Assembly (NCBI RefSeq): GCF_014762705.1
Contig: NZ_JABURL010000049.1
Location: forward strand, 621 to 64,620
DNA: 64,000 nt
Reading direction: 5' to 3'
Origin: Cyclobacterium sp.
GTDB lineage: Bacteria; Bacteroidota; Bacteroidia; Cytophagales; Cyclobacteriaceae
This document shows, piece after piece, positions 12,784-61,345 of this stretch; the stretch's first letter is position 1; the number at the start of each line of letters is the position of its first letter. The translations under genes were made by a program, and so were the position numbers. The notes under the pieces are model-generated. The model saw only the letters and a program-made list of their open reading frames with translations, did not search any database and had not been told where the DNA came from.

Positions 12784-12811
12784 GAGGAGCTTCTTTCAAA
12801 AGTAGCTCCTC
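12784..12811 (+). terminator. possible hairpin terminator after the SSS transporter gene
   Basis: GAGGAGCT (12784-12791) pairs with AGCTCCTC (12804-12811). The T run is displaced a few nt downstream, so this is weak. Confidence 0.3.
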
Positions 12812-13019
12812 AATAACCGTTTTTCTATAGTAGAAAAATTCGGATGCTGGCTGCTAATCCTTTACCAGGTAAATGCCTTAAATGGCAACCCATTTGAGAA
12901 TTAGGTCAAAACTCATTTTCAAAGATTTACTTGTCTGGGGGGATTTCTGTGTCTATTTTAAGGAAAATCCTTTTTTATCAAATAATAATTATTGGCTAAA
13001 ACCGAACTCCAGGACAAGA

Positions 13020-13868
13020 CTATTTTAAAGAAGAAATCAATCGTTCATTCAGGCTTACATAATCCGGGTTATTGGCTTCTCTGGCCAATTCCATGGATTG
13101 TTCTGCCGTTGCAATAGCTTCCATTTTCATACCCAGGGCAGCTTGAATTTTTGCTTTCAGGTGCACGATATAATATTTGGGGTCGGCATCTACAGATTTA
13201 TTGATCCATTCAAGAGCTGTATCAAGGTCTTTGTCATTGGTGAAATAATAGTTTGCTGCCTGAAAATAAAGCCCGGGGTTATCACTGTCCTGATCGATAA
13301 GCATTGTTTTGATTTGTTTCATGACAACCGGATCTACTTCAGTTTCTATCCTGAAGCCTATCTGACTCTTATCCCAGGCCAGCTGTAAGGTAGCACCGGA
13401 GTCTGTCAGCTCGGCAAATTGAATGGTCATGGATTCCACAGGCTTTTTTAGTTTGTTTACGGGAACAGTTACCCGTAAGGCATCGTCCTTGGCATCATAG
13501 CCCATAGCTCCCCATAGTTCGGTTTTATTGGAGAAAATCAGCGTCCACTGGTTTTTATTTGGTACAGTGTAGAATGCGTATTTACCTGCAGCTAAATTTT
13601 GTCCGTTTACCTTGATGTCTGTATCAAATTCAAGCGTTGTGGGATTGTTTGCTCCGGTTCTCCAGACTTTTCCATAGGGGACCAATTCACCAAAAATTTT
13701 TCTACCCTTTTTTCCAGGTCTGGAATAATCGAGATGAATTTCAGTTAACCCTACTTGTTGCACCACTTTACTGCTAGGGCTGGCCTGAGGCATTTTTATC
13801 TGAGAAAATCCATTTATGTGGATTAACGACAAAATTGTAATTAGAAAAAGCACATTTTTTGTTTTCAT
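13020..13868 (-). CDS. DUF2911 domain protein with C-terminal TPR-like helices
   Basis: Signal peptide plus VWRTGANNPTTLEF...GKYAFYTVPN...WTLIFSN, the characteristic DUF2911 block. Confidence 0.7.
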   Translation of the reverse strand: MKTKNVLFLITILSLIHINGFSQIKMPQASPSSKVVQQVGLTEIHLDYSRPGKKGRKIFGELVPYGKVWRTGANNPTTLEFDTDIKVNGQNLAAGKYAFYTVPNKNQWTLIFSNKTELWGAMGYDAKDDALRVTVPVNKLKKPVESMTIQFAELTDSGATLQLAWDKSQIGFRIETEVDPVVMKQIKTMLIDQDSDNPGLYFQAANYYFTNDKDLDTALEWINKSVDADPKYYIVHLKAKIQAALGMKMEAIATAEQSMELAREANNPDYVSLNERLISSLK

Positions 13869-14104
13869 AGAAATTTATAATTAGATTGTAGTTGTGATCA
13901 TCCGAAACAATTTGAGTTTACAGCACAGGTAAAATTACATGTTTATCGGTATTTAATTGTCAGGTAAATATATGCAATTGTAAATAAATGCTGTGTCATA
14001 TTAGCATTGACGTGGGAGATATTGTTTGGGGGGTTGGTATACATAAATGCTTTTTTGGAGATCGTTTTTGAGAATATTTTAATCTTTTAATCGAAATTCT
14101 TTCA

Positions 14105-48024: not shown

Positions 48025-48492
48025 CTAATTCCCAAGTTTATAAACAAAATTTCTAACATCCACCACCTTGAGCAAATCTTGGATACCCGGGAACCTGGGA
48101 TTGACCAACAGGTTGTGTTCTTCCGGGTAAAAAGAGATATGCAACCGGGCTGATGGAACCTTTAAAAATGGAAACCTATTTTCTATCAGCCACAGTTTGC
48201 CGAAATCTTGTGTTGCTTTGTTATGTGGCAGCATGTCCCAGTTCTGTGGAAGGCTTTCCTTTTCAAGCGTACCAATCAGTTCACTTTCAAGGATTTCATA
48301 AATAACCACATACCATGATCCAAAAGTGGTAGAAGTACCTTTGATACAAAGGTATTCCAAAGCCGCCAACGCCGCCGAACTACCGGTGTAAATCATAGGA
48401 TAAGCCTTGGGATTCCACCTTCCCCCTGACAAAGAACTGCTGAAAGGCTCCCGGTGGTATTTTTCCGACATCATGCGGTAATAGGTAAACAT
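48025..48492 (-). CDS. RES domain toxin (NAD+-degrading RES family)
   Basis: GGRWNPKAYPMIYTGSS.ALAALEYL carries the R and E of the RES signature. The 155-aa gene lies 2 nt downstream of an Xre/DUF2384 antitoxin gene. Confidence 0.8.
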   Translation of the reverse strand: MFTYYRMMSEKYHREPFSSSLSGGRWNPKAYPMIYTGSSAALAALEYLCIKGTSTTFGSWYVVIYEILESELIGTLEKESLPQNWDMLPHNKATQDFGKLWLIENRFPFLKVPSARLHISFYPEEHNLLVNPRFPGIQDLLKVVDVRNFVYKLGN

Positions 48493-48494
48493 GC

Positions 48495-49034
48495 CTACAT
48501 GACATTTCCAAAGTGAAGGGCATCTATGGCCTCATGTACCAGGTCTATCCCCGTCATGGATACCATTAGGACCACAGGTTTGGCTTGACCTAAAGCCATA
48601 TTTGGCGTATTCAGCCAGGATTTTAAGCTGGATTCCCGACCAAAAATATCCATCCCCTTTTTGATCACTTCGTCCATTTTGAAAAACTGGTAGGAACCTG
48701 GTATCCCGATTTTACTGTCAGCAGACCACCTGGAGACAGTGCTTTGGGAAACAGCTGCCGCTTTGGCCAAATCAACCATTTTAAGCTCCAAAAAATCAAT
48801 AATCGGGGCAATCTCAGCATAAGTCAGTTTATCTTCCAGCTTTTGACCCACCTCAGTCAAACTCTTTGCAAATTTAAAAGCCTTTAAGAAATAACCATAC
48901 CCGTCCTTGACCTCATAACTGACTTGCTGGTCTCCCTTTTTGACCACAAAGGTATCAGAAATGCCATAAGGCTTTTCATAATCTCTGATATGGTCTTCAG
49001 TCCTAAAGGTTTTATATGTCTTGCTTTTTTTCAT
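48495..49034 (-). CDS. Xre/MbcA/ParS-type antitoxin (HTH + DUF2384 toxin-binding domain)
   Basis: HTH region (LAKAAAVSQSTVSRW) and C-terminal WLNTPNMALGQAKPV....G.D.V...IDAL.FG, the DUF2384 signature. Confidence 0.8.
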   Translation of the reverse strand: MKKSKTYKTFRTEDHIRDYEKPYGISDTFVVKKGDQQVSYEVKDGYGYFLKAFKFAKSLTEVGQKLEDKLTYAEIAPIIDFLELKMVDLAKAAAVSQSTVSRWSADSKIGIPGSYQFFKMDEVIKKGMDIFGRESSLKSWLNTPNMALGQAKPVVLMVSMTGIDLVHEAIDALHFGNVM

Positions 49035-49421
49035 TTGACATTCTAATATATTTCATTTGAAAGAATAAAACAAATTATTTCATGGTTTTTACTTTTCCCA
49101 ATATTTGATAGCAGGTTTGGTTTGGGCTGCTTTAGGAAGAATAATTTGAACAGGGGCTCCCTGGCCTTCGATATTTCCTTCTAAATCCTGCTATTTTTTC
49201 GTACGGATAACTAAAAATAAATCGACCAAGTTGCCATGGGCTTTAGCCCATGGATTCAAAAATAATATTGACATGATTTTGGCGGTATTGTTGCCTTTTT
49301 TTGCAACAATGCTGACAAAATCACTACGGAAAGAACTCGAATCCCGGTTTACCTGCAATAGCACGTGTTTTTATTGGTTTGAAATCATTTATGAAGAAAC
49401 AAGGCCTGGGTATACTAAACC

Positions 49422-50657
49422 CTACTCCCAACCCTTAACCTCACTACTCCGCCGATTGCCCGACTCATCCACCCAGTAGATATACCAAAGTCTGGCATCT
49501 GAAGGAATAGTGACCGTACCTTTGGCTGTATCAAGTGGTACAAGTTTCCACTCCCTTTCCGGACTCTTTTTGTCCTCTGTGGTGTAAGCGAGGTAAACTT
49601 CTTTTGGAGCAGGAGTAGTCGAATACCTGGCCTGACTCCCCTTTTGTTTCAATTTAATTGAATTAATAAATTCGGTTTTATTTTCCAGTTGGGTACTGAT
49701 AAAACGGTAAATCTCCCCGGGTTCTGCTCCGTGTAAATGGCTATGTTTCAGTTCCGGTATCATGGAATACTGTGCATTTCTGGCCAGATTGGCTGTTTTT
49801 TGCCAATTTTCAACGAAATAGGCAAAATCATTGGTACCATTAACAAAAAGCATGGGTACGGTTGCATTGGCCACATAACTGGAAGGATCCCAAAGTTCGA
49901 CCCAGCGCTGGGTAGCATCAGCTCCCAAGGAATCAAACTGATTGTCCCAGGCACTACCTTCGTGAAGATAGCCAGCGCCATACACAGGCACGGCAGCGCT
50001 AAATCGGTGATCTACTCCTGCTACCAGATTGGTCAGGTATCCGCCCCAGCTGATGCCAGTGATGGCTGTCTTATGCGGGTTTACTTCTGGAAAGGAACGG
50101 ATCAGGGAATGCGCACGGATAATATTCGATACGGAATGGAATTGCCACTGCGCGTTAAAATCCTCATCCAATCGGAAAAACTTGTGCCCATCGTCCTGTT
50201 TAGGTCCTCCGGCCTCGAGTCGGGTACCTTTGGAACCCCAGGGGTTGTCCTGCTGATTGCTGGGTATATTTCCGCTCAGGTCCATGGCGATAGCGGCATA
50301 TCCCCTTTCGGCCCATTCCAATGCCCAGATTCGAAAAGCCGTTCCTCCCCCACCGTGAACCAGTACGATGCCGGGATACTCCCCGGTTCCCGGATTTTTT
50401 TCACCCAATGTGGCCGGGCTGGCATAATAAGCGAATACTTCCGTCACCTTCCCTTCATATGCTTCACCGGTATAGGTCAGCGACCAGACCGAGTCAGTCT
50501 GGTTTACCCACTTAAAGTCCGGGGCTACAGACAAAGTCTCTAGTCCCCAGGGAATGCGGCCCTCCAGGGCCGGAGGAGGCATAATTCCGGTTTGGGCAAT
50601 AATAACAAGTCCCCTCAAAAAAAACAACGTTAAGCCGGTTAAAAGAGTGTTTTTCAT
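49422..50657 (-). CDS. secreted alpha/beta hydrolase (acetylxylan esterase / dienelactone hydrolase-like), copy A
   Basis: Signal peptide, HGGGG oxyanion region and a GISWGG nucleophile elbow. It is a paralogue of 58631..59863. Confidence 0.75.
   Translation of the reverse strand: MKNTLLTGLTLFFLRGLVIIAQTGIMPPPALEGRIPWGLETLSVAPDFKWVNQTDSVWSLTYTGEAYEGKVTEVFAYYASPATLGEKNPGTGEYPGIVLVHGGGGTAFRIWALEWAERGYAAIAMDLSGNIPSNQQDNPWGSKGTRLEAGGPKQDDGHKFFRLDEDFNAQWQFHSVSNIIRAHSLIRSFPEVNPHKTAITGISWGGYLTNLVAGVDHRFSAAVPVYGAGYLHEGSAWDNQFDSLGADATQRWVELWDPSSYVANATVPMLFVNGTNDFAYFVENWQKTANLARNAQYSMIPELKHSHLHGAEPGEIYRFISTQLENKTEFINSIKLKQKGSQARYSTTPAPKEVYLAYTTEDKKSPEREWKLVPLDTAKGTVTIPSDARLWYIYWVDESGNRRSSEVKGWE
49673..50319. 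repeat. 647-bp block 100% identical to 58882..59528 (direct repeat, offset 9209)
   Basis: I compared the two copies line by line and found every base identical across the block. Flanking parts of the two paralogues are only roughly 80-85% identical by eye. Confidence 0.9.
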
Positions 50658-50878
50658 GCTGCTAATGATTTATTTTATATTTCTATTTTCAGATCACCTG
50701 CCAATTCCATCTACAAAACATTTACCCCTGTAATTTACAATCAACAAGGAAGTTATAAAATTACTCACAGGATAGCAGTAAGTTATATACCCTTATGGCG
50801 GGCAGCAAACTACTTTTAGTATTGATCCAAAGATTATCAATAACTCTAGGCAAAAAAATCTCTTTCCACCTAGGCACC

Positions 50879-51382
50879 TTAACATAATGCAAATACCAAC
50901 TTTTCAATATCTTCGTTATCAACCTTGTAAGATTTCAGACCTCTTTTCATAACATCAATAAATATTAATTTTTCAGATTTATCAGGCTCCAAAGTGTTAA
51001 AATCTTCAATTGCATGTTTCCAAGCTGATATCTCCGATGTTGGAGTCTCTAACTCAATTTTATCATTGTCTTTATCTGCTATATGTCCAAATTCATGTAA
51101 TAGAATTGTCATAAACTCAGTATCTTCAAAATCAACAACATTTACAAACAATGACAGCGGCTTCTTCGGTTCCGCATCTTTATCCCAAACTATTTTTCCA
51201 CCAAAACTTATCTTATTCTGAATAATTGCGTCTCTGCTGCTTACTGGGACTATGCTTAATTCAAGTGACAATAACCAGTCAATTTTCTCAATAAGAAGGT
51301 CTTCGTATCGAACTTTATTTTTTAATTTACTTTTAAATTCTCTTATTAGGTTGTTTTTTTTACGTTCGAAGGCTACAGTCAT
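50879..51382 (-). CDS. small putative zinc metallopeptidase (HExxH)
   Basis: 167-aa ORF with TILLHEFGHIADKD (HExxH). No signal peptide. AT-rich island context. Confidence 0.45.
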   Translation of the reverse strand: MTVAFERKKNNLIREFKSKLKNKVRYEDLLIEKIDWLLSLELSIVPVSSRDAIIQNKISFGGKIVWDKDAEPKKPLSLFVNVVDFEDTEFMTILLHEFGHIADKDNDKIELETPTSEISAWKHAIEDFNTLEPDKSEKLIFIDVMKRGLKSYKVDNEDIEKLVFALC

Positions 51383-51894
51383 ATTTTTTTTATTAACTTT
51401 TTCTTAAAAGGTTATCTCTTAACAATATCTTTTGTAATCTGTGCATTAAAATTGACTCCATACTAAGGATTCTAAAAGTTGAGTCTGAAAATAATAGATC
51501 CGGTTCATAGATGACTGTACTTGATAGCAGAAATCTTGATGATCTCTGACCATCCACAAACAATTCAAGTTCAATCCAAAGATCATCTCTCAATCCTATT
51601 CAAGATTAGATTTAGCCACAAAAGCATAGTTGGTTTTCTCAACATTAATGTGACGACATAGGATATCATATATTCTGACTTTCCTATACCATTAACCACC
51701 TTGAAATACCTCCTTTATAGTTTAGATAACTTTGAAAAAGAGGACAATTTTCAACTATTAATAAAGCCATTTTCTGATTTTATTCTTATCTGATCGTAAT
51801 CGTAACTCAGATATTTCTGGTAATCTTCAAAACCTCTTTGGTGTAGAGAAAAGACTCAAGTTTGAAATGTAGATCCGGGGCATTTAACAAATTA

Positions 51895-53793
51895 TCATCC
51901 ATAATTTTGTTTGTTTGGTTCTGCTACTCTAGTTAAGTCATCTTCAATTAATTCATCTGGTTTGCTTAATCCGTAATATCTTCTTAATAATCGTTCTGGA
52001 TCACTTGACTCCAGCAACAAATCTTTTTCCTCTTCTGAAAGCTCACAGATTCCGAAATTTTTAATATAGTTTTTGCTCATTGATATATACCCGGACGAGT
52101 AGTCTTTGGTTATACTCTTTATGTAACCAAAGAATATATCTGATTCCATTATTCTCTTTAAAACTCTTAGCTCTCTAAGTGAATCAGACACTACCGCTAT
52201 TCCACTATAAAATAGCAATTTTTTATCTTTTGAAATTGTGAAAGTAGGACGTTCACTTAGGTGAGGAAAGAATAATTTGTATGAGTTAATATCAAGGGAC
52301 TGTCTACGGCCATATGCATACCATTTTTCGTATTCTCTTTGTCCTTTATCACGTGTGCTTAAAATCTCCCTATTACCGCACAAGTATTGGTAAGTATGAG
52401 GATATAATTCCTGAAAAACCTGTTCTTCTAGAATCAATATCTCCCTTTCGCTTTGCGTATAGGGAAAGATTATTTTCTCATTGTTAACCAATATATCCTC
52501 TTCACTTCTTGCTTTATTGGGGTTAACAATGTCACGACATATATCCTTTTCTATTTTATAGACCGATCCATTTTTGGTCTTTAATAAAAAATATCTATCA
52601 TCTTCTCCGAAAGGAAAAAACTTATAAATGTCATTTTTCAATGTTGCAATTCCGTTTCTTGTGGTATAGACGTCTTTAAATGGACGACCAACAGCCTCGA
52701 TTTTATTAACGTATTCAAGCTGATCCTTTGAATCAACCAAATTCCATCCATCATGATCGTGAAGTGTATCGTATTCGTAAGAAATGAACATTGAATCCTT
52801 GATCGATTCTATGCTATCAGGTGTTGCCTTTTTATATTTGATTTTACCTGCACTATTCTTTAAAAAACAAATGCATGTATATGTGCTACGGTTTTTGAAA
52901 ATTTGCTCTCCTCCAAAGTTGATTATTTTCAAGTCAACCTTGTTCCTGGAAAAATATTCTCTCAGTGATCTGCCATTGACACTTTTTATGAAAGTGTTTA
53001 CAGTTATAAACCCCAGAATTCCATCGGCTTTTAAGCTTTCAAATCCCAACTGAAAAAATGGAATATATAAGTCCGGATGACCACTTTTAGTAACCTCCCA
53101 ATTATCAATTAAATCAAGTGATTCCTGATCCATATTGCGAGAACATACATATGGCGGATTACCTAGAACTATGTCAAATCCACTAAAATCGGATGGATAA
53201 TCGCTCCAATCGAAGCTTAAAGCATTTCCTTTAAATAGGTTAAAATCAAATGACTCTTCATCTTCTCCTTCCGAAATTGCAAGAAGGCTAAGTAAGATTT
53301 TAGATCTTTCAATTGAAAATTCTTCAATATCTAAACCAAATAACTGGTTTCTAAATATTTCACTGAAAGGTCTTCCAGTAACATTATTCAACAGCTTTGC
53401 GCAAGACAGTAAAAAGGCTGAGCAACCACATGCAGGATCACATATTTTTATGTTTTCACGCTCTTTTTTATTCGATCTGAGAGACTCATTAATAATGTAA
53501 TCCCTAATGTATTTTGGTGTGTAAATTGCTCCATTTACTATCTTCTCTTCAGGAGATATTACGAACTCAAACAGTTCAATCAGCTGCTCAAAGTTATCGA
53601 GTATTTGTAAAGTATTGAACTCTTTTAGTGCTTCAAAATCTGCATCCTTACGCTGAATAAGTAAATTTTTGATAAACTTATTTTTAACTATTTTAATATC
53701 TTTTTGATACAAAAAGGATGATACGATCAAGCGGTTGATCTTTAAAGGATCAAAGGAATATGTACTGAGATATGAAAATACTTCCTTTTTCAT
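51895..53793 (-). CDS. Eco57I/type IIG-like gamma-class N6-adenine DNA methyltransferase (no nuclease domain)
   Basis: Motif X GAIYTPKYI, motif I CDPACGCSAFLL and motif IV LGNPPYV, followed by about 300 aa of TRD-like region. The ATG at 53793 forms an ATGA overlap with the upstream gene's stop. Confidence 0.8.
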   Translation of the reverse strand: MKKEVFSYLSTYSFDPLKINRLIVSSFLYQKDIKIVKNKFIKNLLIQRKDADFEALKEFNTLQILDNFEQLIELFEFVISPEEKIVNGAIYTPKYIRDYIINESLRSNKKERENIKICDPACGCSAFLLSCAKLLNNVTGRPFSEIFRNQLFGLDIEEFSIERSKILLSLLAISEGEDEESFDFNLFKGNALSFDWSDYPSDFSGFDIVLGNPPYVCSRNMDQESLDLIDNWEVTKSGHPDLYIPFFQLGFESLKADGILGFITVNTFIKSVNGRSLREYFSRNKVDLKIINFGGEQIFKNRSTYTCICFLKNSAGKIKYKKATPDSIESIKDSMFISYEYDTLHDHDGWNLVDSKDQLEYVNKIEAVGRPFKDVYTTRNGIATLKNDIYKFFPFGEDDRYFLLKTKNGSVYKIEKDICRDIVNPNKARSEEDILVNNEKIIFPYTQSEREILILEEQVFQELYPHTYQYLCGNREILSTRDKGQREYEKWYAYGRRQSLDINSYKLFFPHLSERPTFTISKDKKLLFYSGIAVVSDSLRELRVLKRIMESDIFFGYIKSITKDYSSGYISMSKNYIKNFGICELSEEEKDLLLESSDPERLLRRYYGLSKPDELIEDDLTRVAEPNKQNYG

Positions 53794-54542
53794 ATTAACT
53801 GGGGAAATATATCTTTTGCACTCCAACTGTTTGCCACATTTGTCTCAAATCCAAAATGTCTAGAGAGGCTACAGTAATATGGTTTGAGTATGAGCTCTTG
53901 AGAATGTCTCAGGAGTTTTATAAATCTTTGCTCACTTCTCAATTTTTTATGAATTCCCGGGCAAAAGTTTGATGTAACAAAGTCAATCCCAAGTATTAAA
54001 TCCATAGGATAGTGCTTTAACCTTGGACTTCCCATGAATAATGAGCTGCCGAAATTCTCCCCTGGCACTGATTTTAACCTGTGACCGCCTACATGAATAT
54101 GATATGCAGGGTGGACTTCATCTGATTGACTATTTTCAGGCTGTCGATCTAGGTGAAAGCAAAGAATGTGTTTAACATCTCTTTTAGTAAGTCCTTCAAT
54201 TGTAAGATTGAACTCAAGCAGTTGAAAAGGATTAAAGTCTAATTTGTTTTCTCTAAATTCTGCCTTGACGTCTATATCCAATGTAACCTTAATGCTTTTT
54301 AGTTTTCCTTCTTTAGGGTATTGTATCCCACTAATTGGTTCTTGTCTAAATACAAGATTTTTGACTCTATAACCCCAACTCGTAGGGGTTGCTAGTGGCA
54401 GGTCATTCTCGTTTTTTAAACTTGTTACTGCAGTTGTTATAGGGCTGGAATCAATAGTTAGCTTAGCCAATATTTCAGAGAGCACTTTGTACTGATTAGC
54501 CAAATTGATTCTGAATTTTTTATTTGATTGATCAATAGTCAT
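53790..54542 (-). CDS. hypothetical protein (250 aa), member of the coupled operon
   Basis: Coding-like ORF with ATGA overlaps at both ends. I recognised no motif. There is a His-rich stretch HPAYHIHVGGH. Confidence 0.6.
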   Translation of the reverse strand: MTIDQSNKKFRINLANQYKVLSEILAKLTIDSSPITTAVTSLKNENDLPLATPTSWGYRVKNLVFRQEPISGIQYPKEGKLKSIKVTLDIDVKAEFRENKLDFNPFQLLEFNLTIEGLTKRDVKHILCFHLDRQPENSQSDEVHPAYHIHVGGHRLKSVPGENFGSSLFMGSPRLKHYPMDLILGIDFVTSNFCPGIHKKLRSEQRFIKLLRHSQELILKPYYCSLSRHFGFETNVANSWSAKDIFPQLI

Positions 54543-55627
54543 TTGCTCAAACTTTCTGAATCTTGCTTAAGTCGCTCTTCATCTAGAGGATGCACTTCGA
54601 TTCCTTCCTTTTGAGCTTTTCTTCCTACAAAGGAAATCAGTGAAGCATAGGAATATTCCTGCCAAGGTTTAGGCTCCTCTCTCATATTTATCCGATAGCC
54701 TTCAAAAGGGTCTAAAGGATTTTTTGAAACTTGACATATTGTCCAAAAATCTGTACTCGAATTCAATTCTTCAGGGCTAGCGCTGACTATATTATTTAGT
54801 CTTAGTGATTGTTTAATAGCATCTACCCTTTCTTTCGCATTTAACACTGCCAATGACTTACCCGTAATCTTTTCAAAAGTTTCCACGATTAAATCTGACC
54901 ACCATCTAGGCCAACATTCCGAAAACACTCCCCTATATTTTTGATCATTGAATGTTTCGAATACTTTTTTGGTATCAGCTGATTTGGCTATGTCGATACC
55001 AAGCCTAGCTGCCAAAATGTTTTCATCTACTAATAATCCAATTGGTTGAACTAGGTCTTTAAAGATTACTCTAGCTATTTCATGCGAAGGAGGAGTTGAT
55101 TTCTTACTCATGAATCTTGAAAATACTCGTTCATCAATTTCAGAGACCTTCCTTTTTAAAATTTCTTCAAAATCACCTTTTTTATCGACAATAAGAGAAT
55201 ACCCGTTGCACATGCAAATTATCTTTTCAATTGTCTCGTCGTTTATGTCCTTTTTAAGGAAAGTCCAATCAAACAGATTATGGCTCGTGAAATCTTTGTC
55301 ATAAGTCTCTTTGATTCTAGCTTCCGTGGAACAGAGAATAATTGGTATATCTTTAATCTTTCCCTCAGTTGCGTAGGTCCTAATTGTCTGGGCTATAGTC
55401 GGTGCTTGATATTTTACTTGCTTCCCGTCTTCTTGAGGGCCATTCAATTGAAGGTCTAAAAGTAACCCATCATAATGACTCAGGCTATCTAACAAATTAC
55501 CAACCTCTGATTCATAGAAATCAGGTTTGTCCCATTTGATTTCAAGTTTGCCAGTGGATTCTAACTTTCTCTTTATTGGCAGAACAAGATCATCTTTTTC
55601 ATCATCTAGGTAGAGTATCTTTTTCAT
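54539..55627 (-). CDS. receiver (REC) domain protein with an uncharacterised ~230-aa C-terminal domain
   Basis: The N-terminus has KILYLDDEKDD (acidic pocket), GLLLDLQL (candidate phospho-acceptor Asp) and IPIILCST (conserved Ser/Thr position). The C-terminal two thirds carry no motif I recognise. Confidence 0.6.
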   Translation of the reverse strand: MKKILYLDDEKDDLVLPIKRKLESTGKLEIKWDKPDFYESEVGNLLDSLSHYDGLLLDLQLNGPQEDGKQVKYQAPTIAQTIRTYATEGKIKDIPIILCSTEARIKETYDKDFTSHNLFDWTFLKKDINDETIEKIICMCNGYSLIVDKKGDFEEILKRKVSEIDERVFSRFMSKKSTPPSHEIARVIFKDLVQPIGLLVDENILAARLGIDIAKSADTKKVFETFNDQKYRGVFSECWPRWWSDLIVETFEKITGKSLAVLNAKERVDAIKQSLRLNNIVSASPEELNSSTDFWTICQVSKNPLDPFEGYRINMREEPKPWQEYSYASLISFVGRKAQKEGIEVHPLDEERLKQDSESLSK

Positions 55628-57912
55628 TTTTCATCAAGTTTTGGAAGCTCTATTCTTATTGTCGTATTACACCCGTTAGAAGGATTATCTACCAAGACAT
55701 CCCCCCCGTATCCTTCAACTATATCTTTAATTATTTTGAGTCCTAAACCTGTTCCTGTTAATTCTTCAATTTCGTTGGAGGACTTTCCTGTTGGAGGACT
55801 TGTTGTGAAGAAAGCTTCGAAAACATGTTCACGATCTTTCTCTGGTATTCCTATTCCATTATCTGAAAAAGTGAAAAATATTTTACCGTTTTCAATGCCT
55901 CCTTCAATATAAATAATTCCCTTACGTCCTGTTTTTGAAATGGCTTTCTTAGAGTTAGTATACAGATTAAATAGTATTGATGACCATTCAGATTTATGCA
56001 TAGGACAAGTAAACAGGTTGTAGCCTTTGAACTCATACTTTAGTTCTATACCATTTCTAAGCAAATCAGGAGTAATAGCATTTTCAAAATCAAATACAAC
56101 ATCTCTTATTTCAATTGGCTCTAATTCTCTATTGATGTTATTTGATATTGCCTCTTTGAAGTAAGAAGTGTACACTGTTAGAGACTCAAGGTTCTTACTT
56201 AGTCTTAATCCAGCTTTTTTCCCATCTTCAGATTCAATTAGCGATAATAAAAATTCGGTATCATATTTAAATGCCGGTTCATAATGACCGATTTCATGTA
56301 CGAACTCCCCAATTGTCAACCCAAGCCCAGCCAATATTCTTAACAATTGAATTTCTCTCAGTAATTCCTGTTTATCTCTTTCAGCTTGCGACTGTTCCTC
56401 CTGCTGTGTTTCTTGATATTCATTTAGCTTTTGATCCACGGATTTCAACTTAACCGAGATATTTCCTTCACTATCTTTTGAAACGCTATCGAAAATTTGG
56501 CTGTCGGCTGTCTCTATCAATTCGCTGACATCCTTTTTAACATCTTGTAATAATTCTTTGGAAGACTTCTTTTCCCATTCTTTTTGACCCGCAGTTCCTT
56601 TTCTCTCCCTGATATGAGAAATTTTAATGGTCATATCTGTAAGTGCCTTGTAGACAAAATCTTGTAATTCTCCTAAGGATTGATTTATTAATAATCCTTC
56701 CCTACTCGATTGCTCCTGAAACATTTCACCTTTTGGGTCAACAACCTCAACAAATCCAAAGAAGTTGATATTACCGTGTGGAGTTATCAATGAATTTCGT
56801 CTTACCGATGCGTCTAGCCCAATCCAATCATCATCTTTTTGCCCATAAGGTGGTACTCTGAATCCATTTCGGTAAAGCTTAATTCCTCCATTTTTCCGAG
56901 CATTTCCGAGTATGTATGAGTTAACTGATTTTGGTAAATAGGAAGATTTGTTCGAGTTATAAATAAAGTAATGAGCCTTTAAATGGATGTTTTTAAGAGA
57001 TTCAAATGGGGTTTCTCTTTCTGATTTACCTATGAGATAAACTTCCTCGGCAATATTTAATTTATCACTGCTAAATCCGTAATATCCTTGACCATTTTCG
57101 TCTACGTACGCCTCAATGTCAGCAAGTGCATGCTGGAAAAATTCACTTTGATCATCAATTATCAATTCACCGTTTCTAAATATTGACACAAGGAATCCAG
57201 AATCATTTTCACTTTTTGAAAGTCTTTCGGATAGTGGATATGGTTGTAGCAACTCAGAAACATATCTAAATGATCTTCTAAGCATCGCTTCTGACCAACC
57301 ATCTCGTACTTTTTCAATAATTAGGGTTGTGCCTTCATCTTTTTGTTTTTGAATCTCTTTAACTTGATTTGAAATTAAAATCAGGTTGCTATCCATCTCG
57401 TATTGATTCCAATTAACAACCAATTTAAGAGCCATATTTGACTCCTTGGTCTGTGTGATAATTGTTAGTACCTCGCCAATTCTCTGTGTAGCAAATCGAC
57501 CTATTCCCTTCTGTCCAGCCCTGACTCGATTAAATTTTGGAGATTTTGGATTATGGATTTTATCACTCGATGAGATGGTCATGAAACCTTTGACAAGTTG
57601 ATCACGAGTCATACCATGTCCATCATCTTCAATTGTTAATTTTCCACCAGGTGTGAAACAATTCTCGAAGTACAAATCCACCTTTGTTGCATCAGCATCA
57701 TAAGCATTTTTGACTAATTCAGCGACTGCCGTTTCATGACGACCAACTAATTCGCGACCCAGCCGATTAATTACCCCAGCATCTACTGAGAATCTAATAT
57801 TTTGATTATCAAATGAGGAGAGTAAGGAGGAGAGTTCTAAAATCCTATTATAATTATTAGGCTCCTTTTGAAGTGTGTCCTCCAGAAGTTTCCTTACTTC
57901 AACCTCAGTCAT
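55624..57912 (-). CDS. cytoplasmic fusion of a MORC/MutL-type GHKL ATPase and a histidine-kinase core (DHp + CA)
   Basis: N-terminal half: AELVKNAYDADATKV, IEDDGHGMT and GQKGIGRFA (Bergerat fold, HATPase_c_3-like). Middle: coiled coil followed by an H-box, GEFVHEIGHYEP. C-terminal half: NLYTNSKKA, SDNGIGIP, VFEAFFTT and GTGLGLKI (N, G1, F and G2 boxes). No TM helix. The start at 57912 overlaps the HTH stop by 8 nt. Confidence 0.7.
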   Translation of the reverse strand: MTEVEVRKLLEDTLQKEPNNYNRILELSSLLSSFDNQNIRFSVDAGVINRLGRELVGRHETAVAELVKNAYDADATKVDLYFENCFTPGGKLTIEDDGHGMTRDQLVKGFMTISSSDKIHNPKSPKFNRVRAGQKGIGRFATQRIGEVLTIITQTKESNMALKLVVNWNQYEMDSNLILISNQVKEIQKQKDEGTTLIIEKVRDGWSEAMLRRSFRYVSELLQPYPLSERLSKSENDSGFLVSIFRNGELIIDDQSEFFQHALADIEAYVDENGQGYYGFSSDKLNIAEEVYLIGKSERETPFESLKNIHLKAHYFIYNSNKSSYLPKSVNSYILGNARKNGGIKLYRNGFRVPPYGQKDDDWIGLDASVRRNSLITPHGNINFFGFVEVVDPKGEMFQEQSSREGLLINQSLGELQDFVYKALTDMTIKISHIRERKGTAGQKEWEKKSSKELLQDVKKDVSELIETADSQIFDSVSKDSEGNISVKLKSVDQKLNEYQETQQEEQSQAERDKQELLREIQLLRILAGLGLTIGEFVHEIGHYEPAFKYDTEFLLSLIESEDGKKAGLRLSKNLESLTVYTSYFKEAISNNINRELEPIEIRDVVFDFENAITPDLLRNGIELKYEFKGYNLFTCPMHKSEWSSILFNLYTNSKKAISKTGRKGIIYIEGGIENGKIFFTFSDNGIGIPEKDREHVFEAFFTTSPPTGKSSNEIEELTGTGLGLKIIKDIVEGYGGDVLVDNPSNGCNTTIRIELPKLDEK

Positions 57913-58114
57913 TTGAATTAACTTTATTTGAAACAATTAATTCCTTGACATCTAAATCAAGTATATCAGCAATCGTATTCAAGTCTTCGAGAATAGGTTG
58001 GCTTCTATTCTGAACATATGAATTCGTAATGGTATAGCTCTTTCCAAGCTTTTCCGACAGCCACGTTTGCGTGATTCCTTTTTCTTCAAGAACAGCTTTT
58101 ATTCGATTCATCAT
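57905..58114 (-). CDS. XRE family helix-turn-helix transcriptional regulator
   Basis: The 69-aa sequence IKAVLEEKGITQTWLSEKLGKSYTITNSYVQN.SQP is the classic Cro/C1 HTH. It is the first gene of the operon. Confidence 0.85.
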   Translation of the reverse strand: MMNRIKAVLEEKGITQTWLSEKLGKSYTITNSYVQNRSQPILEDLNTIADILDLDVKELIVSNKVNSND

Positions 58115-58153
58115 CGTTAAATTTAAAAAGATTGGAAGTTAGTAATATTGTAT

Positions 58154-58163
58154 AGATATATCT
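58154..58163. promoter_or_regulatory. perfect 10-bp palindrome AGATATATCT upstream of the XRE gene (candidate operator)
   Basis: It lies 40-49 nt upstream of the XRE start codon in the AT-rich leader. The operator function is inferred only. Confidence 0.25.
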
Positions 58164-58630
58164 TAAATTTCACGATGTTTTTGATTTGTTAGACTGATTA
58201 ATTAGTGCTTGAAAAGCCGCACACATCTGCCATTCTCACTACCCTTCTCCTGCAGAAAATGCCGAAAAAGTGCACCCTTTTTCTTAGAAAAATTTAATCA
58301 TTTTTAATTGATGTTAAAAGGCCAACACCAAACTATTAATTCCGCTCTTTACTAAAGCAAATTAACATTAAGCAGACCAAAATACAGAAATTATAGGAAT
58401 TTGCAATCGTGCGGATAACAAAGAATAAATTAACCAATTAGTTCTATTAAAGTAAAAATCCGTAAAAAGGGGTATTTAACCGGATTTTGGCGGCAAAGTT
58501 GCTTTGGTCGCAATAATACTAACAAAATTCATATAGTAAGAATTTGAAATCGGGTTTAACTTTAAATAGTACCGGATTTTTTTTAAATTCGTTTATATTT
58601 ACAAAAATCTAATGCTGTGCCTTCTAAATC

Positions 58631-59863
58631 TTACTCCCACCCCTTCACCTCACTACTCCTTCGATTGCCCGATTCATCTATCCAGTAGATATACCATAAA
58701 TTAGCTTTTGCAGGTATGCTTACACGGCCTTTGGTTTGTTCCAGCGGTACGATTTTCCACTCCCTTTCCGGACTCCGTTTGTCCTCTGTGGTGTATGCAA
58801 GGTAAACGTCTTTCGGAGAAGGAGCAATCGAATACCTGGCCTGACTCCCCTTTTGTTTCAGCTTAATTGAACTAATAAAATCGGTTTTATTTTCCAGTTG
58901 GGTACTGATAAAACGGTAAATCTCCCCGGGTTCTGCTCCGTGTAAATGGCTATGTTTCAGTTCCGGTATCATGGAATACTGTGCATTTCTGGCCAGATTG
59001 GCTGTTTTTTGCCAATTTTCAACGAAATAGGCAAAATCATTGGTACCATTAACAAAAAGCATGGGTACGGTTGCATTGGCCACATAACTGGAAGGATCCC
59101 AAAGTTCGACCCAGCGCTGGGTAGCATCAGCTCCCAAGGAATCAAACTGATTGTCCCAGGCACTACCTTCGTGAAGATAGCCAGCGCCATACACAGGCAC
59201 GGCAGCGCTAAATCGGTGATCTACTCCTGCTACCAGATTGGTCAGGTATCCGCCCCAGCTGATGCCAGTGATGGCTGTCTTATGCGGGTTTACTTCTGGA
59301 AAGGAACGGATCAGGGAATGCGCACGGATAATATTCGATACGGAATGGAATTGCCACTGCGCGTTAAAATCCTCATCCAATCGGAAAAACTTGTGCCCAT
59401 CGTCCTGTTTAGGTCCTCCGGCCTCGAGTCGGGTACCTTTGGAACCCCAGGGGTTGTCCTGCTGATTGCTGGGTATATTTCCGCTCAGGTCCATGGCGAT
59501 AGCGGCATATCCCCTTTCGGCCCATTCCTGCGCCCATATTCGGAAGGCCGTCCCTCCCCCACCATGAACCAGTACGATGCCCGGAAACTCCCCGGTCTCT
59601 GTATTTTGTTCACCCAATGTTGCCGGACTGGCATAATAGGCAAATACCTCCGTCACCTTTCCTTCATAAACCTCACCGGTATAGATCAGTGATCGGACCG
59701 GTGAGGTTTGATTGATCCATTTAAATTCTGGTGCTTCCGATAATTTCTCCAAATCCCAGGGAATACGTCCCTCCAATGCCGGTGGTAAGGAAAGCCCGGT
59801 TTGGGCAGTGACCAGGCCTTGTAAAAGAAAGAGAGCTAAGCAGATCTGAATCAGTTTTTTCAT
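58631..59863 (-). CDS. secreted alpha/beta hydrolase (acetylxylan esterase / dienelactone hydrolase-like), copy B
   Basis: Same motifs as copy A. The signal peptide and C-terminal third have diverged, and the central part is identical. Confidence 0.75.
   Translation of the reverse strand: MKKLIQICLALFLLQGLVTAQTGLSLPPALEGRIPWDLEKLSEAPEFKWINQTSPVRSLIYTGEVYEGKVTEVFAYYASPATLGEQNTETGEFPGIVLVHGGGGTAFRIWAQEWAERGYAAIAMDLSGNIPSNQQDNPWGSKGTRLEAGGPKQDDGHKFFRLDEDFNAQWQFHSVSNIIRAHSLIRSFPEVNPHKTAITGISWGGYLTNLVAGVDHRFSAAVPVYGAGYLHEGSAWDNQFDSLGADATQRWVELWDPSSYVANATVPMLFVNGTNDFAYFVENWQKTANLARNAQYSMIPELKHSHLHGAEPGEIYRFISTQLENKTDFISSIKLKQKGSQARYSIAPSPKDVYLAYTTEDKRSPEREWKIVPLEQTKGRVSIPAKANLWYIYWIDESGNRRSSEVKGWE
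58882..59528. repeat. 647-bp block 100% identical to 49673..50319
   Basis: See the partner repeat at 49673..50319. Weaker homology extends from about 58409 to about 59900 (partner about 49200 to about 50700). Confidence 0.9.
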
Positions 59864-59942
59864 ATTTCGAATCTATATTTCAATTCTTAATTATTGGTTG
59901 AAAAAGCGACTTGAGTAACTTCTTTAATTGAGTGAGGCGAAT

Positions 59943-60467
59943 TCACTCATCTTCCCCCTCACCTAACCCACTCAAAAAGTCATCTATTGATTTGGTGTTT
60001 CTTCTTTTCTCCTCAGGGGTCATATTCTTATATTTCGCCATAGTCTTGTTCAGCTCTTCAAGTTGCGCTGCTATTTCCTCCTGGTCAAAAGAGAAAAATG
60101 TCATTTCATACAGGCAATGGGCAATGATTTCCAATTCCGTAAACTCCTTAAATGCACGCTCATCCACCTTCATGCCAAGCCAACTGTTCCAGGGAGTAAA
60201 TTCAAGGGCCAATCCATCGTTTCCAGATAACGGATCCACGCTTCCATCAGCGTGGTACCCATCTACATCCACATAATTTTCATCTTCTTCCCTGATTTCA
60301 ATCAGCCGGATGACAATATCGCTGGAAGGATCAGGTTTCATTTCCATTAGCTGGTTGAACACCTCTCTATATGCATCGATCTGCTCTTCCTGATCTGGAT
60401 ATAGCCTATTTAATTCTGTTTCAATGCTTAGCCAGTGTTGCCTTCGGATCAATTCGTGAAATGTCAT
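59943..60467 (-). CDS. hypothetical acidic cytoplasmic protein
   Basis: 174-aa coding-like ORF with no motif I recognise. Confidence 0.5.
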   Translation of the reverse strand: MTFHELIRRQHWLSIETELNRLYPDQEEQIDAYREVFNQLMEMKPDPSSDIVIRLIEIREEDENYVDVDGYHADGSVDPLSGNDGLALEFTPWNSWLGMKVDERAFKEFTELEIIAHCLYEMTFFSFDQEEIAAQLEELNKTMAKYKNMTPEEKRRNTKSIDDFLSGLGEGEDE

Positions 60468-60542
60468 GGTTGGGTTATTTTAAGGTTGTGTCTTCTTGTT
60501 TTATATTATTCTGACTCCCCTCCATTTTTCCACCTACTCTAA

Positions 60543-60607
60543 CCCCCCCTACTGTTTTAGGAGGTGGCTCGGGGGGTGGTTAATTGGGCTCGGGAGGTAG
60601 AAACACT
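60543..60607. repeat. ~63-bp direct repeat, copy 1 (degenerate CCCCCTCCTGTTTTAGGAGGGGG hairpin core plus a GGTGGTTAATTGGGCTCGGGAGGTAGAAACACT tail)
   Basis: Near-identical to 61284..61345. The 40-nt tail is identical, and the core has a few mismatches and a 1-nt indel. Confidence 0.85.
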
Positions 60608-60648
60608 ACCGTCTGGCGGTTCATCATCCTTTTGACCAACGGGCGATT

Positions 60649-61008
60649 TTATCGTTCCAAATACTCCCCTATCACCCTTAACACCCCTAAGATATCTTCC
60701 CTCACCTCCCTATTCTCAAAGCGCAACACCCGGATACCACATAATGTAAGGGCGGAATCCCTTTCCAAATCTGATTGATGTCCTTCTTGCGTATAATGTG
60801 GTGACCCGTCCAGCTCCACGGCAAGTTTCTCCTCCGGACAGTAAAAATCCAAGATAAAATCCCCGTAGCTGTGCTGCCTCCTAAACTTCTTACCCTTTAG
60901 ACGCCTTCCTTTTAATTGTAGCCAAAGTAGCTGTTCCTCTTTCGTGGAATTGTTACGCAGGTCTTTTCGGGTTTCTTTTAGTGATTTTTTATTGTTGAGT
61001 CTTGCCAT
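60649..61008 (-). CDS. DUF559 (Vsr-like) endonuclease domain protein
   Basis: EEQLLWLQLKGRRLKGKKFRRQHSYGDFILDFYCPEEKLAVELDG..H is the DUF559 signature. I prefer the ATG at 61008 (MARLNNKK). Confidence 0.8.
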   Translation of the reverse strand: MARLNNKKSLKETRKDLRNNSTKEEQLLWLQLKGRRLKGKKFRRQHSYGDFILDFYCPEEKLAVELDGSPHYTQEGHQSDLERDSALTLCGIRVLRFENREVREDILGVLRVIGEYLER

Positions 61009-61083
61009 GGCTGAAAAAAGAATTGAATTTTCTTTATTAAATTTTATTAATCCTCCCCTCCATGTTTCCACCACCCCCTTATT

Positions 61084-61106
61084 CCCCCTCCTAAAACAGG
61101 AGGGGG
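61084..61106. repeat. inverted copy of the 23-bp hairpin core (CCCCCTCCTAAAACAGGAGGGGG)
   Basis: Exact reverse complement of 61284..61306. It lies just upstream of the DUF559 gene. Confidence 0.85.
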
Positions 61107-61283
61107 CGAGAGAGAGCCTATTTTATCCTGAGAAGTGCGAAAATCACCTATTCCCAAGATACTAATATTCCGATTTATTTTCTATATCCCCATTTTGCCA
61201 TTTTGGACGGTTCTTTTATAATCTCTTTTCACCTCACCTACCACCGTGGCTTAAAGAATACCACTATTTTAAAACAACTAACT

Positions 61284-61345
61284 CCCCCTCCTGTTTTAGG
61301 AGGGGGCTCGGGGGTGGTTAATTGGGCTCGGGAGGTAGAAACACT
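61284..61345. repeat. ~63-bp direct repeat, copy 2
   Basis: CCCCCTCCTGTTTTAGGAGGGGGCTCGGGGGTGGTTAATTGGGCTCGGGAGGTAGAAACACT; see copy 1. Confidence 0.85.

Follow-up and report, generated by a model that had tools for sequence, protein, structure and literature searches.

In a 64,000-nt stretch of DNA from Cyclobacterium sp. (the window), two diverged alpha/beta-hydrolase genes, hydA and hydB, bracket an inserted island and share in their middle a core which is identical at every base (Table 1), and the sequences strongly support that this core was recently homogenised by recombination, that is, by gene conversion. The reading which we favour, with a probability of roughly 0.6, is that a xenologous hydrolase gene arrived together with the cargo of the island and that the core was converted afterwards in a non-reciprocal way.

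Table 1. Positions of the hydrolase genes, of their repeated parts and of the island genes in the window
Feature	Position	Strand	Description
3' flank of hydA	49199..49421		weak homology to the hydB 3' flank
REP-like hairpin element	49275-49322		inside the 3' flank of hydA
hydA	49422..50657	-	411 aa; secreted alpha/beta-hydrolase of Peptidase_S9/AXE1/DLH type (ORF and Pfam)
Identical core, copy A	49672..50319		648 nt, codons 113-328 of hydA (exact run)
Inserted island	50658..58406		7749 nt, between the start of hydA and the 3' flank of hydB
HExxH protein (HEFGH)	50879..51382	-	167 aa, low-GC cargo
Eco57I-type N6-adenine DNA methyltransferase	51895..53826	-	643 aa (Pfam Eco57I/N6_Mtase)
250-aa protein	53790..54542	-	conserved cassette member
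Receiver-domain protein	54539..55627	-	362 aa; N-terminal REC fold and C-terminal domain
GHKL fusion protein	55624..57936	-	770 aa from TTG; annotated 762 aa
HTH (XRE/HTH_26) protein	57905..58114	-	69 aa, first cassette gene
3' flank of hydB	58407..58630		diverged copy of the hydA flank; the duplicated unit ends and the island starts
hydB	58631..59863	-	410 aa; second hydrolase copy (ORF and sequence comparison)
Identical core, copy B	58881..59528		648 nt, in hydB (exact run)

A preliminary description of this DNA had reported two hydrolase genes on the same strand, as direct repeats 9209 bp apart, with diverged ends and different signal peptides. All of this was confirmed: the offset between the copies is constant at 9209, the mean identity outside the core is 82.0% in the 3' part and 77.3% in the 5' part (86/73/89% and 83/78/70% respectively, in bins of about 100 nt), and the signal peptides (first 20 residues) are 47% identical. 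BLASTN aligns 49415-50598 with 58624-59807 at 91.4% identity over 1189 columns. Upstream of the start codons no homology between the two copies was found. hydA adjoins an Xre-RES toxin-antitoxin pair, and hydB is contiguous with a DUF6557/p141 module on its upstream side. The homology announced for about 220 bp past the stop codons is present but weak: the homologous 3' flank of both copies, about 227 nt, contains two colinear blocks, 49275-49354 with 58483-58561 (74%) and 49199-49229 with 58407-58437 (84%). The REP-like hairpin element of the hydA flank is multi-copy in three related loci (L010-L012), and in Cyclobacterium salsum (L014) it sits after the first hyd copy.

The longest exact run shared by hydA and hydB is one base longer than the 647 bp given earlier, the perfect identity itself having stood. 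It encodes every catalytic motif of hydA, namely GISWGG (201-206), NGTNDF (273-278) and HSHLHG (305-310), and this would suit the idea that purifying selection on the catalytic core is enough to keep the copies identical, without any recombination. However, the dS between hydA and hydB in the core is 0.00 over 215 codons, whereas the same codons give 0.72-1.26 against every ortholog, and the flanks of the pair give 1.11 (5') and 0.57 (3'). Moreover, the core of the orthologs diverges 0.53-1.82 times as much as their flanks (90 ortholog pairs). At the observed flank divergence of 20.5%, one expects 70-122 differences in the core and there are none (Poisson P between 5e-31 and 8e-54, with an ortholog-based control of the rate). 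Hence selection as the cause of the identity is refuted, its probability being practically nil, and the recent gene conversion proposed in the preliminary description is strongly supported. Between loci, the longest identical run is 151 nt, when the near-identical pair L004/L013 (899 nt) is set aside.

One may also ask whether the identity was produced by the assembly, either because the assembler or the polisher fused near-identical paralogous segments, or because a repeat was mis-resolved, the true state then being a tandem array or an empty site accompanied by a 9.2-kb circle. Typical short-read inserts are shorter than 648 nt, so that the exact repeat exceeds them; the source is one Cyclobacterium sp. 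contig of 64,792 nt, and each copy of hyd is recorded on one contig only; and the integrated form would share one assembly graph with the empty site plus circle. However, segments differing by 15-20%, as expected without conversion, would not be merged by an assembler, and even under this explanation the core has to be far more similar than the flanks and a recent recombination is still required. The sequence is unique at the junctions of the island with the 5' end of hydA and with the 3' flank of hydB, and a natural two-copy architecture exists in the isolate genome of C. salsum. An artefact is improbable.

The single-copy empty site which had been predicted in relatives was found: hyd is single-copy, with the same synteny, in 13 of the 14 related Cyclobacteriaceae loci, the gene order being p290-(DUF6557)-hyd-Xre-RES-PAP. 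What lies downstream of hyd differs among them: L002 has a TdeIII R-M system, L007 a PLD-SNF2/MTase/SMC system, L011 beta-lactamase-family genes and L012 a Y1-transposase-like gene; on this comparison, the stretch downstream of hyd is a variable hotspot. The remaining locus, that of C. salsum, has two copies in the order hyd1-SusC/SusD-133-nt p290 fragment-hyd2 pseudogene, which are 82.8% identical without any identity tract; this two-copy state arose independently. A recombination breakpoint is located inside hyd when L014 is compared with L006.

The two genes are not young paralogs, as their flanks have diverged like orthologs of different species (dS up to 1.1), the native neighbour genes having a dS of 0.45-0.93 against relatives. 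This between-species level means that one copy is probably a xenolog brought with the cargo, or else an old duplicate. In the 5' part both copies have closer orthologs elsewhere than their paralog, the nucleotide identity being 77.3% for A-B, 82.0% for A-L001 and 80.9% for B-L013, and the protein identity 81% for A-B, 84% for A-P0003 and 86% for B-P0018. In the 3' part, the nearest relative of hydB is hydA (82%, versus at most 77% for orthologs), which may point to an origin in situ or to a conversion of older date. As a whole, hydA is the more ortholog-like copy and hydB is more divergent at both distal ends: its divergence from orthologs is 0.29 versus 0.18 for hydA at nt 151-200, and 0.29-0.37 versus 0.11-0.21 at nt 1101-1200. 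The region upstream of hydB is 94-96% identical to L005/L002, and this identity drops sharply near codon 4. A search of 5.8 billion proteins gave no donor lineage; nothing there exceeds 86% identity to any segment of hydB or 84% to hydA, and therefore the xenology is deduced from divergence only.

The old duplicate would correspond to a tandem duplication of hyd in situ, after which the island would have been inserted between the two genes and only the core would have undergone concerted evolution. Both ORFs are intact and under purifying selection (dN/dS about 0.12-0.22), and this history would also account for the homologous 3' flank carried by both copies and for the closeness of hydB to hydA in the 3' part. 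We consider it rather unlikely: with one copy in 13 of the 14 related loci and a flank dS of 0.6-1.1, which equals or exceeds the inter-species values of 0.45-0.93, it needs many independent losses. It also fits poorly with the 5' parts, each closer to the orthologs of other species than to the other copy, and with the island, whose composition (34% GC) is unameliorated.

The island is of the size formerly estimated (about 7.7 kb) and compositionally foreign, with 34.3% GC compared to 49% in the hyd genes and 42.3% in the window outside the island. Domain searches gave no integrase, transposase or recombinase domain in any island ORF, the window contains no tRNA gene, and neither junction or target-site repeats at the ends of the island nor microhomology or any other diagnostic signature at its junctions were found. 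Its cargo comprises a five-gene cassette (HTH protein, GHKL/histidine-kinase fusion, receiver-domain protein, 250-aa protein and Eco57I-type methyltransferase). This cassette recurs as a conserved unit on a Hymenobacter plasmid, in Haloflavibacter and in Parvicella-type metagenome contigs. The stop of the HTH gene falls a few nucleotides ahead of the start of the GHKL gene; this order is kept in L015-L018, and in L007 another defence cassette opens with a 68% homolog of the HTH protein. The N-terminal part of the GHKL fusion is a HATPase_c_3 domain, like the N-terminus of the BbrUII/HgiDII restriction enzymes, and its C-terminal part is a histidine-kinase HATPase_c. In the receiver-domain protein, the alignment shows the invariant residues D8, D9, D58, S100 and K125 of the REC fold, and its AF2 model (pLDDT 92) matches many response-regulator receiver domains in Foldseek (TM 0.70-0.78). 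The 250-aa protein, whose position is conserved in L015, L018 and L019, had no match in Pfam and other family searches; it is a candidate effector. The methyltransferase has a full-length PADLOC match to MTase_II (6e-106). The HExxH protein had no family match either; it is placed outside the conserved cassette and is unrelated to the gene which follows the methyltransferase in L015. The cassette yielded no identifiable restriction nuclease domain, so we call it R-M-like by association only.

The scenario which we infer would start from a single conserved secreted hyd gene bordering a recombination hotspot in Cyclobacterium. The 7.75-kb low-GC cargo, that is the five-gene cassette and one orphan gene, would have entered this hotspot with a second hyd copy already diverged from the first as between species, most likely a xenolog from another Cyclobacteriaceae lineage, which could have served as a homology handle for integration without any site-specific recombinase. 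Later, a non-reciprocal exchange would have overwritten 648 nt of one copy by the other, homogenising the whole catalytic core and leaving the signal-peptide/N-terminal and C-terminal parts diverged.

The identical block could instead be the footprint of integration itself, if one Campbell-type crossover, in a core that was shared or heteroduplex-repaired, had joined the resident hyd to a circular donor carrying hyd and the island; both copies would then be reciprocal chimeras. Direct repeats of a target gene around a cargo, without recombinase, are what insertion-duplication leaves behind; excision is predicted to bring back the ancestral synteny, and hyd is a demonstrable recombination junction in the genus. 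However, a common ancestry is then predicted for hydB-5' with hydA-3' and for hydA-5' with hydB-3', and instead hydB is more divergent at both ends, with a higher dN in its C-terminal part (0.18-0.22) than hydA (0.10-0.15). Furthermore, MEPS and mismatch-repair barriers make strand exchange inefficient between partners only about 80% identical, so that this explanation also needs 648 nt which were identical before integration. That the island was captured by way of a crossover in the core, as once suggested for this locus, does not fit and is quite unlikely; the divergence of hydB at both ends is better explained by a whole foreign or redundant copy and a later conversion.

Whatever was overwritten in the favoured scenario, the 648-nt perfect repeat, lying inside 1.2 kb of 91% homology, is now a plausible substrate for a RecA-type crossover. 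Such a crossover would release the island and a chimeric hyd as a 9209-bp circle, and would leave in the ancestral arrangement the single chimeric gene which had been anticipated: the predicted deletion product is in frame, encodes an intact 410-aa chimera and has the order DUF6557-hyd-Xre/RES as in relatives. Unequal exchange could amplify the island instead. The loss of the island, its frequency and its dependence on RecA are what we infer from this repeat; if the cassette is a functional R-M-like system, post-segregational killing could oppose the loss.

Intragenomic gene conversion is a known phenomenon, tufA/tufB being a further example. The conversion and concerted evolution of bacterial paralogs, generally attributed to RecA-type homologous exchange, likewise leave an identical tract with diverged flanks and orthologs (PMC8022953; PMC6053082, the latter a survey of prokaryotic paralogs), and for E. 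coli rRNA operons a rate of about 8.6e-6 per operon per donor operon per generation was measured (PMC8022953). In contrast to these cases, the identity between the hyd partners is only about 80% beyond the tract, they probably come from different species, they bracket foreign cargo, and a single tract is seen instead of a whole gene homogenised over the long term.

Furuta, Abe and Kobayashi 2010 (PMC2853133), with earlier H. pylori work, described R-M insertions with long target duplication which are similar in that a low-GC cargo of less than 20 kb without mobility genes lies between long direct repeats, a related genome having one copy of the repeat sequence at its empty site; the authors proposed that such cargo goes through a cycle in which it inserts, is amplified via the repeats and is released. 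Their target repeats measure 46-423 bp and are 93-100% identical mutually and to the target (PMC2853133). The hyd unit differs from them in its length (about 1.45 kb, a whole gene and its 3' flank), in being 100% identical only in its middle and 70-89% at its ends, in being compared between species, and in a cassette where a restriction nuclease was not identified. Integrase-mediated islands, whose insertion duplicates the 3' end of a protein gene or tRNA gene, also have their cargo between direct repeats which stem from the target gene. Unlike them, the present island has neither an integrase or transposase domain in its ORFs nor a tRNA gene in the window, and its repeats are whole diverged genes instead of short att sites.

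Homology-facilitated illegitimate recombination and Campbell-type insertion-duplication were reportedly described by de Vries and Wackernagel in 2002 and by Prudhomme in 2002. These processes (see also PMC3240628) resemble our locus in that foreign DNA enters by one-sided homology without a dedicated recombinase and, in insertion-duplication, in that the anchor is left as direct repeats; at the hyd locus no microhomology or junction signature was found, and it lacks the reciprocal chimeras expected from a crossover in the core. Finally, the two-component-like HK/RR pairs associated with R-M systems and paraMORC ATPases (Bellieny-Rabelo et al. 2021, PMC8011034; Iyer, Abhiman and Aravind 2008, PMC2292703) also combine an HK-like HATPase_c_3 protein, a neighboring receiver-like protein and a DNA methyltransferase. 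Our cassette differs from them by its additional conserved 250-aa protein and by its methylase, which is of the N6-adenine Eco57I type and not of the C5 type stressed in the HK/RR paper (PMC8011034), and its proteins gave no match, even at E = 10, to HEF_HK (PF19191) and Response_reg_2 (PF19192), the Pfam models by which the HK/RR family is defined. The locus is a new example of phenomena already known, a real but ordinary case of the gain of a bacterial gene island, of its homogenisation and of its possible loss.

For most of their length, the two hydrolase genes hydA and hydB (see the table) give a gap-free alignment in which the offset stays at 9209 nt (BLASTN: 49415-50598 with 58624-59807, 91.4% identity) and, provided that the contig is correctly assembled, one genome carries two homologous copies of the gene, hyd. 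The longest exact run between them, called here the core, extends over 648 nt (49672..50319 and 58881..59528) and includes all the catalytic motifs (GISWGG, NGTNDF and HSHLHG). The preliminary description had given a perfectly identical core of 647 bp: the block is indeed exact, and it is one base longer. Outside the core the identity is 89, 73 and 86% towards the 3' end, and 83, 78 and 70% towards the 5' end. Past the stop codons, weak colinear homology runs to about +227 nt and therefore the outer boundary previously placed at about 49200 and 58409 is correct, the homology being far weaker there than in the genes. No homology was found between the two copies upstream of their start codons, and comparison of the window with itself gave no further long repeats besides a 69-nt pair near 60.5/61.3 kb. 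The direct repeat with an identical core is thereby confirmed.

Coordinates of the features in the window
Feature	Coordinates	Strand	Description
3'-flank block 2	49199-49229 ~ 58407-58437		84% identity
3'-flank block 1	49275-49354 ~ 58483-58561		74% identity
hydA	49422..50657	minus	411 aa, secreted alpha/beta-hydrolase; Peptidase_S9/AXE1/DLH-type Pfam matches
p167	50879-51382		167 aa, HExxH (HEFGH) motif, low GC
methyltransferase	51895-53826		Eco57I-type N6-adenine; PADLOC MTase_II full-length match, 6e-106
p250	53790-54542		250 aa
p362	54539-55627		362 aa, predicted receiver-domain protein
GHKL fusion	55624-57936		770 aa; N-terminal HATPase_c_3, C-terminal histidine-kinase ATP-binding domain
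HTH	57905-58114		69 aa, XRE-type
hydB	58631..59863	minus	410 aa, secreted alpha/beta-hydrolase; Peptidase_S9/AXE1/DLH-type Pfam matches
DUF6557	59943-60467		upstream module
p141 (DUF559)	60649-61074		upstream module

For 90 ortholog pairs taken from related genomes, the divergence of the core relative to that of the flanks ranges from 0.53 to 1.82, with a median of 0.92. Given the 20.5% divergence of their flanks, hydA and hydB are thus expected to differ at 70-122 positions of the core, and they differ at none (P from 5e-31 to 8e-54 under this ortholog-calibrated expectation). Over the 215 codons of the core, dS between the two copies is 0.00, as against 0.72-1.26 for the same codons compared to every ortholog and 1.11 (5') and 0.57 (3') in the flanks of the two copies. 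Selection alone is ruled out as the cause by the zero dS and by the rates seen in orthologs, because selection acting on the protein cannot erase synonymous differences. The identical core has no reasonable cause other than recent homologous exchange, and the recent gene conversion or recombination proposed in the preliminary description is supported both by this contrast in dS (0 against 0.57-1.11) and by P values of at most 5e-31.

The identical core, or the integrated state itself, might also be an effect of assembly, the repeat having been mis-resolved or a bubble collapsed, and this point needs confirmation at the level of reads. An exact repeat of 648 nt is hard for short-read assemblers (the window is part of a single contig of 64,792 nt), the integrated form gives the same assembly graph as an empty site accompanied by a 9.2-kb circle, and the collapsing of bubbles could make a nearly identical core appear perfect. 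However, every one of these scenarios still requires recent recombination, because an assembler would not merge segments diverged by 15-20%, the level expected if no conversion had occurred.

Recent homologous exchange being accepted, one can ask which copy was overwritten. In the 5' part each copy is nearer to the orthologs of other species than to its paralog, and in the 3' part the nearest sequence to hydB is hydA (82%, against at most 77% for orthologs), these segments being short (250-280 nt). Compared to orthologs, the ends of the two copies show 72-85% identity; for the 3' part the figures are 80-83% for hydA, which resembles an ortholog, and 75-77% for hydB, which is distant from all of them. 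More generally hydB is more divergent from orthologs than hydA at both distal ends, and its C-terminal domain has a raised dN. The divergence of hydB at both ends lends indirect support to a one-way conversion in which a single copy would have been overwritten. These comparisons fit an ortholog-like hydA, adjoining Xre-RES, and a probably foreign or redundant hydB, adjoining the cassette, followed by non-reciprocal conversion; they seem to fit less well reciprocal chimeras born from a single crossover through the core. Segment identity and dN/dS are only suggestive as to which copy may be the resident and which the donor.

The flanks of hydA and hydB have diverged as much as hyd has between species: dS is 0.57-1.11 for these flanks and 0.45-0.93 for the native neighbour genes compared to the closest relatives. 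The comparison argues against a young duplication of hyd in situ, which appears unlikely, and an old one would need many losses among relatives. Neither hydA nor hydB was on record in exact-protein look-ups, and a search of the protein database for a donor or a conspecific gave at best 84-86% for any segment (at most 86% to any segment of hydB). Since this search gave no donor, xenology as well as the order and direction of events are what we infer.

Scanning one genome per species, we collected 14 related loci from Cyclobacterium and Pleomorphovibrio. The gene hyd is single-copy in 13 of them, typically in the order p339-p290-(p141/DUF6557)-hyd-Xre-RES-...-PAP, and the same genes flank the two copies of the window. 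This means that an ancestral single-copy locus exists; the comparison of related genomes for such an empty site, suggested in the preliminary description, thus has a positive answer with matching synteny. The DNA lying 3' of hyd varies with the species. Several genomes carry Xre-RES alone; C. lianum (L002, 12914-15053) has a TdeIII restriction enzyme together with a C5 methylase, and beta-lactamase-family genes are found in locus L011. Pleomorphovibrio marinus (L007, 11374-20165) has an HTH gene 68% identical to that of the island, and after it come genes for a 1118-aa PLD-SNF2 helicase, a 1231-aa Eco57I/TaqI_C methylase and an SMC-like ATPase. Other defence cargo is present at the same spot in L007 and L002.

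On the other side of hyd, the DUF6557/p141 module (59864-61345) shares 94-99% identity with its counterparts in C. jeungdonense and C. plantarum, with dS of 0.01-0.08, as compared to 0.45-0.93 for the adjacent core genes, and this identity collapses around codon 4 of hydB. Such values indicate a very recent transfer of the module between species. One can notice a 69-nt direct repeat on either side of p141 (60539-60607 and 61278-61345, 94%), with an inverted copy at 61084-61114.

The exception to the single-copy rule is the isolate C. salsum (L014, 4543-12750), where the order is hyd1-SusC-SusD-p290 fragment-hyd2-Xre-RES. The p290 fragment duplicates the 3' end of this gene over 133 nt (94%), and hyd2 is a pseudogene with a 7-nt deletion. 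The two copies are 82.8% identical along their full length, and no tract of identity or conversion was found between them. Identity to C. roseum is 91-100% over the 3'-terminal third of hyd2 and the Xre-RES region that follows it (L014, about 12300-13900), as against 71-87% for the 5' part of hyd2; this jump places a breakpoint of inter-species recombination inside hyd. We also considered a shared ancestry of the two-copy states of the window and of C. salsum: hydB shows no special closeness to hyd1, and any preference of hydA for hyd2 over hyd1 is marginal at most. As the copies are not specifically related, the two duplications look independent. A common cargo in C. salsum and P. marinus, which both have an ORF of 1118 aa, was rejected, SusC and the PLD-SNF2 helicase having zero DNA similarity. 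Variable DNA on both sides, a breakpoint within hyd and a module whose identity ends at hydB make hyd a recurrent recombination junction.

Directly 3' of hydA (48025-49034) are found a RES-domain toxin of 155 aa and an Xre/MbcA/ParS-type antitoxin of 179 aa. The pair is kept at this place in 8 related loci (the RES gene being in view in 7), and its dS of 0.17-0.35 is below that of the neighbouring core genes. A REP-like hairpin repeat of about 50 nt also lies 3' of hydA (49275-49322), with a degenerate copy 3' of hydB, and is found again in L011 (18898-19707), L012 (16044-16869), L010 (4921-4973) and L014 (5798-5882). In other Cyclobacterium it forms arrays with a spacing of about 375-400 nt, and in L012 a Y1-transposase-like (IS200-type) ORF adjoins hyd together with such arrays, which suggests a REP/RAYT-type system.

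The island itself (50658-58406, 7749 nt) has a GC content of 34.3%, to be compared with 42.3% elsewhere in the window and 49% in the hyd genes, and all its genes have the same direction. None of its ORFs matched recombinase, transposase or mobility families, no tRNA gene was found at the island or in the window, and at the junctions a target-site duplication, microhomology and a p290 fragment like that of C. salsum gave nothing above chance. The first five genes form a cassette (51895-58114) which is found in the same order on Parvicella-type metagenome contigs (71% and 68% identity) and in Haloflavibacter putidus, and also on a Hymenobacter plasmid beside a Piwi-domain (pAgo) gene. The gene p167 is outside this conserved unit; the 512-nt gap separating it from the methyltransferase gene holds only a 66-aa ORF. 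The GHKL protein has more than 3000 homologs, mostly in Bacteroidota and none in the phage collection, and its N-terminus resembles that of the BbrUII/HgiDII restriction enzymes (3e-24). In p362, the AF2 model (pLDDT 92) superposes on many receiver domains of response regulators (TM 0.70-0.78), the alignment of its family with CheY by hhalign is weak (E = 0.024) yet in register, and D8, D9, D58, S100 and K125 are invariant in the family; p362 is thus predicted to be a REC-fold receiver protein with a D-D-D-S-K pocket, and its C-terminal 220 residues gave no match. No match was obtained for p250 and p167 in sequence searches of Pfam, PADLOC, NCBIfam, PHROGs and PDB.

With PADLOC, only the methyltransferase is matched in full, the GHKL N-terminus and the HTH are matched partially or weakly, and p362 and p250 are without a match. 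Family searches of the island ORFs found no restriction nuclease domain in the cassette, and the reading of the latter as a defence or R-M system is therefore one by association. As a working model, the cassette would be a methylation-linked defence module, whose GHKL/kinase-receiver pair would control the restriction arm or form part of it. The closest described likeness is that of the predicted TCS-like/paraMORC modules associated with R-M (PMC8011034; PMC2292703), with which the cassette shares a histidine-kinase-like protein containing HATPase_c_3, a receiver-fold protein encoded next to it, and linkage to a DNA methyltransferase; it differs from them in that HEF_HK (PF19191) and Response_reg_2 (PF19192) give no match even at E = 10.

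What is directly observed is a repeated whole gene with its 3' flank bracketing foreign cargo, a 648-nt identical tract and single-copy relatives. The cargo, together with a diverged second copy of hyd, would have integrated through hyd homology without a recombinase, either by one-ended homologous recombination completed by an illegitimate join or by insertion-duplication close to the 5' extremity of hyd, and gene conversion would afterwards have homogenised the core. The perfect repeat may now allow a RecA-type crossover deleting 9209 bp. Such a deletion would leave, between DUF6557 and Xre-RES, an intact chimera of 410 aa (N-terminus of hydB, core, C-terminus of hydA), and the reciprocal chimeric hyd would go onto a circle together with the island. 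In model bacteria, RecA-dependent exchange already becomes efficient at repeat lengths well below this one. We infer the integration route, the place of conversion in the order of events and the RecA-type crossover; deletion of the island and its capture are both plausible, and the divergence of the segments does not favour capture by a crossover within the core. If the cassette restricts unmethylated DNA, post-segregational killing, a concept reportedly put forward by Kobayashi for the loss of R-M systems, could select against loss of the island.

It would be a long shot to see hyd as a portable homology handle, with cargo moving between Cyclobacteriaceae together with a hyd copy and without a recombinase, and recurrent conversion maintaining the long perfect repeat. 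The cargo would be here an uncharacterised histidine-kinase/receiver R-M-like system, and in C. salsum the SusC/SusD pair. This repeat could then let the defence island leave as a circle, multiply or disappear at appreciable rates, which would amount to an on/off or copy-number switch based on recombination. Kobayashi is said to have proposed R-M "life cycles" of this kind; to our knowledge, the release and re-entry they imply have never been shown.

Overall, the interpretation given in the preliminary description is partly supported. The case provides a clean and statistically unambiguous conversion tract between flanking copies of a core gene at a defence/cargo hotspot, for which relatives offer a matched empty site and the genus a second, independent case, and it illustrates the recombinase-free gain and potential loss of an island in Bacteroidota. 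It also points to a widespread uncharacterised cassette (HTH, GHKL/histidine-kinase fusion, receiver protein, p250 and N6 methyltransferase), which is its most promising by-product.

Among known types of insertion, the closest architecture is the insertion with long target duplication, for which the repeats published around R-M complexes measure 46-423 bp and are 93-100% identical (PMC2853133). As in that class, the direct repeats are longer than 30 bp and single-copy at the empty site (here in a comparison between species). Members of the class are shorter than 20 kb and carry R and M homologs without mobility genes; our island measures 7.75 kb and has a methyltransferase and no mobility genes, its sole pointer to the restriction side being the BbrUII/HgiDII-like N-terminal domain of the GHKL protein. 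The difference lies in the repeated unit, which extends here over 1.45 kb with ends only 70-89% identical, the core alone being perfect. A Campbell-type insertion-duplication in the core would leave reciprocal chimeras; hydB is instead more divergent at both distal ends, in a comparison to which the mosaic ancestry of hyd within the genus leaves limited power. With neither recombinase, att-like junction repeats nor tRNA gene, the island does not match an integrase-mediated one. The core tract is the standard signature of gene conversion, which has been measured at about 1e-5 per operon pair per generation for the rRNA operons of E. coli (PMC8022953). Since a standard conversion tract is associated here with a nearly known architecture departing from its class in one feature, we regard the island and its hyd copies as a new example of known processes, that is, not a new principle but an ordinary mechanism seen in a setting that is nicely resolved.
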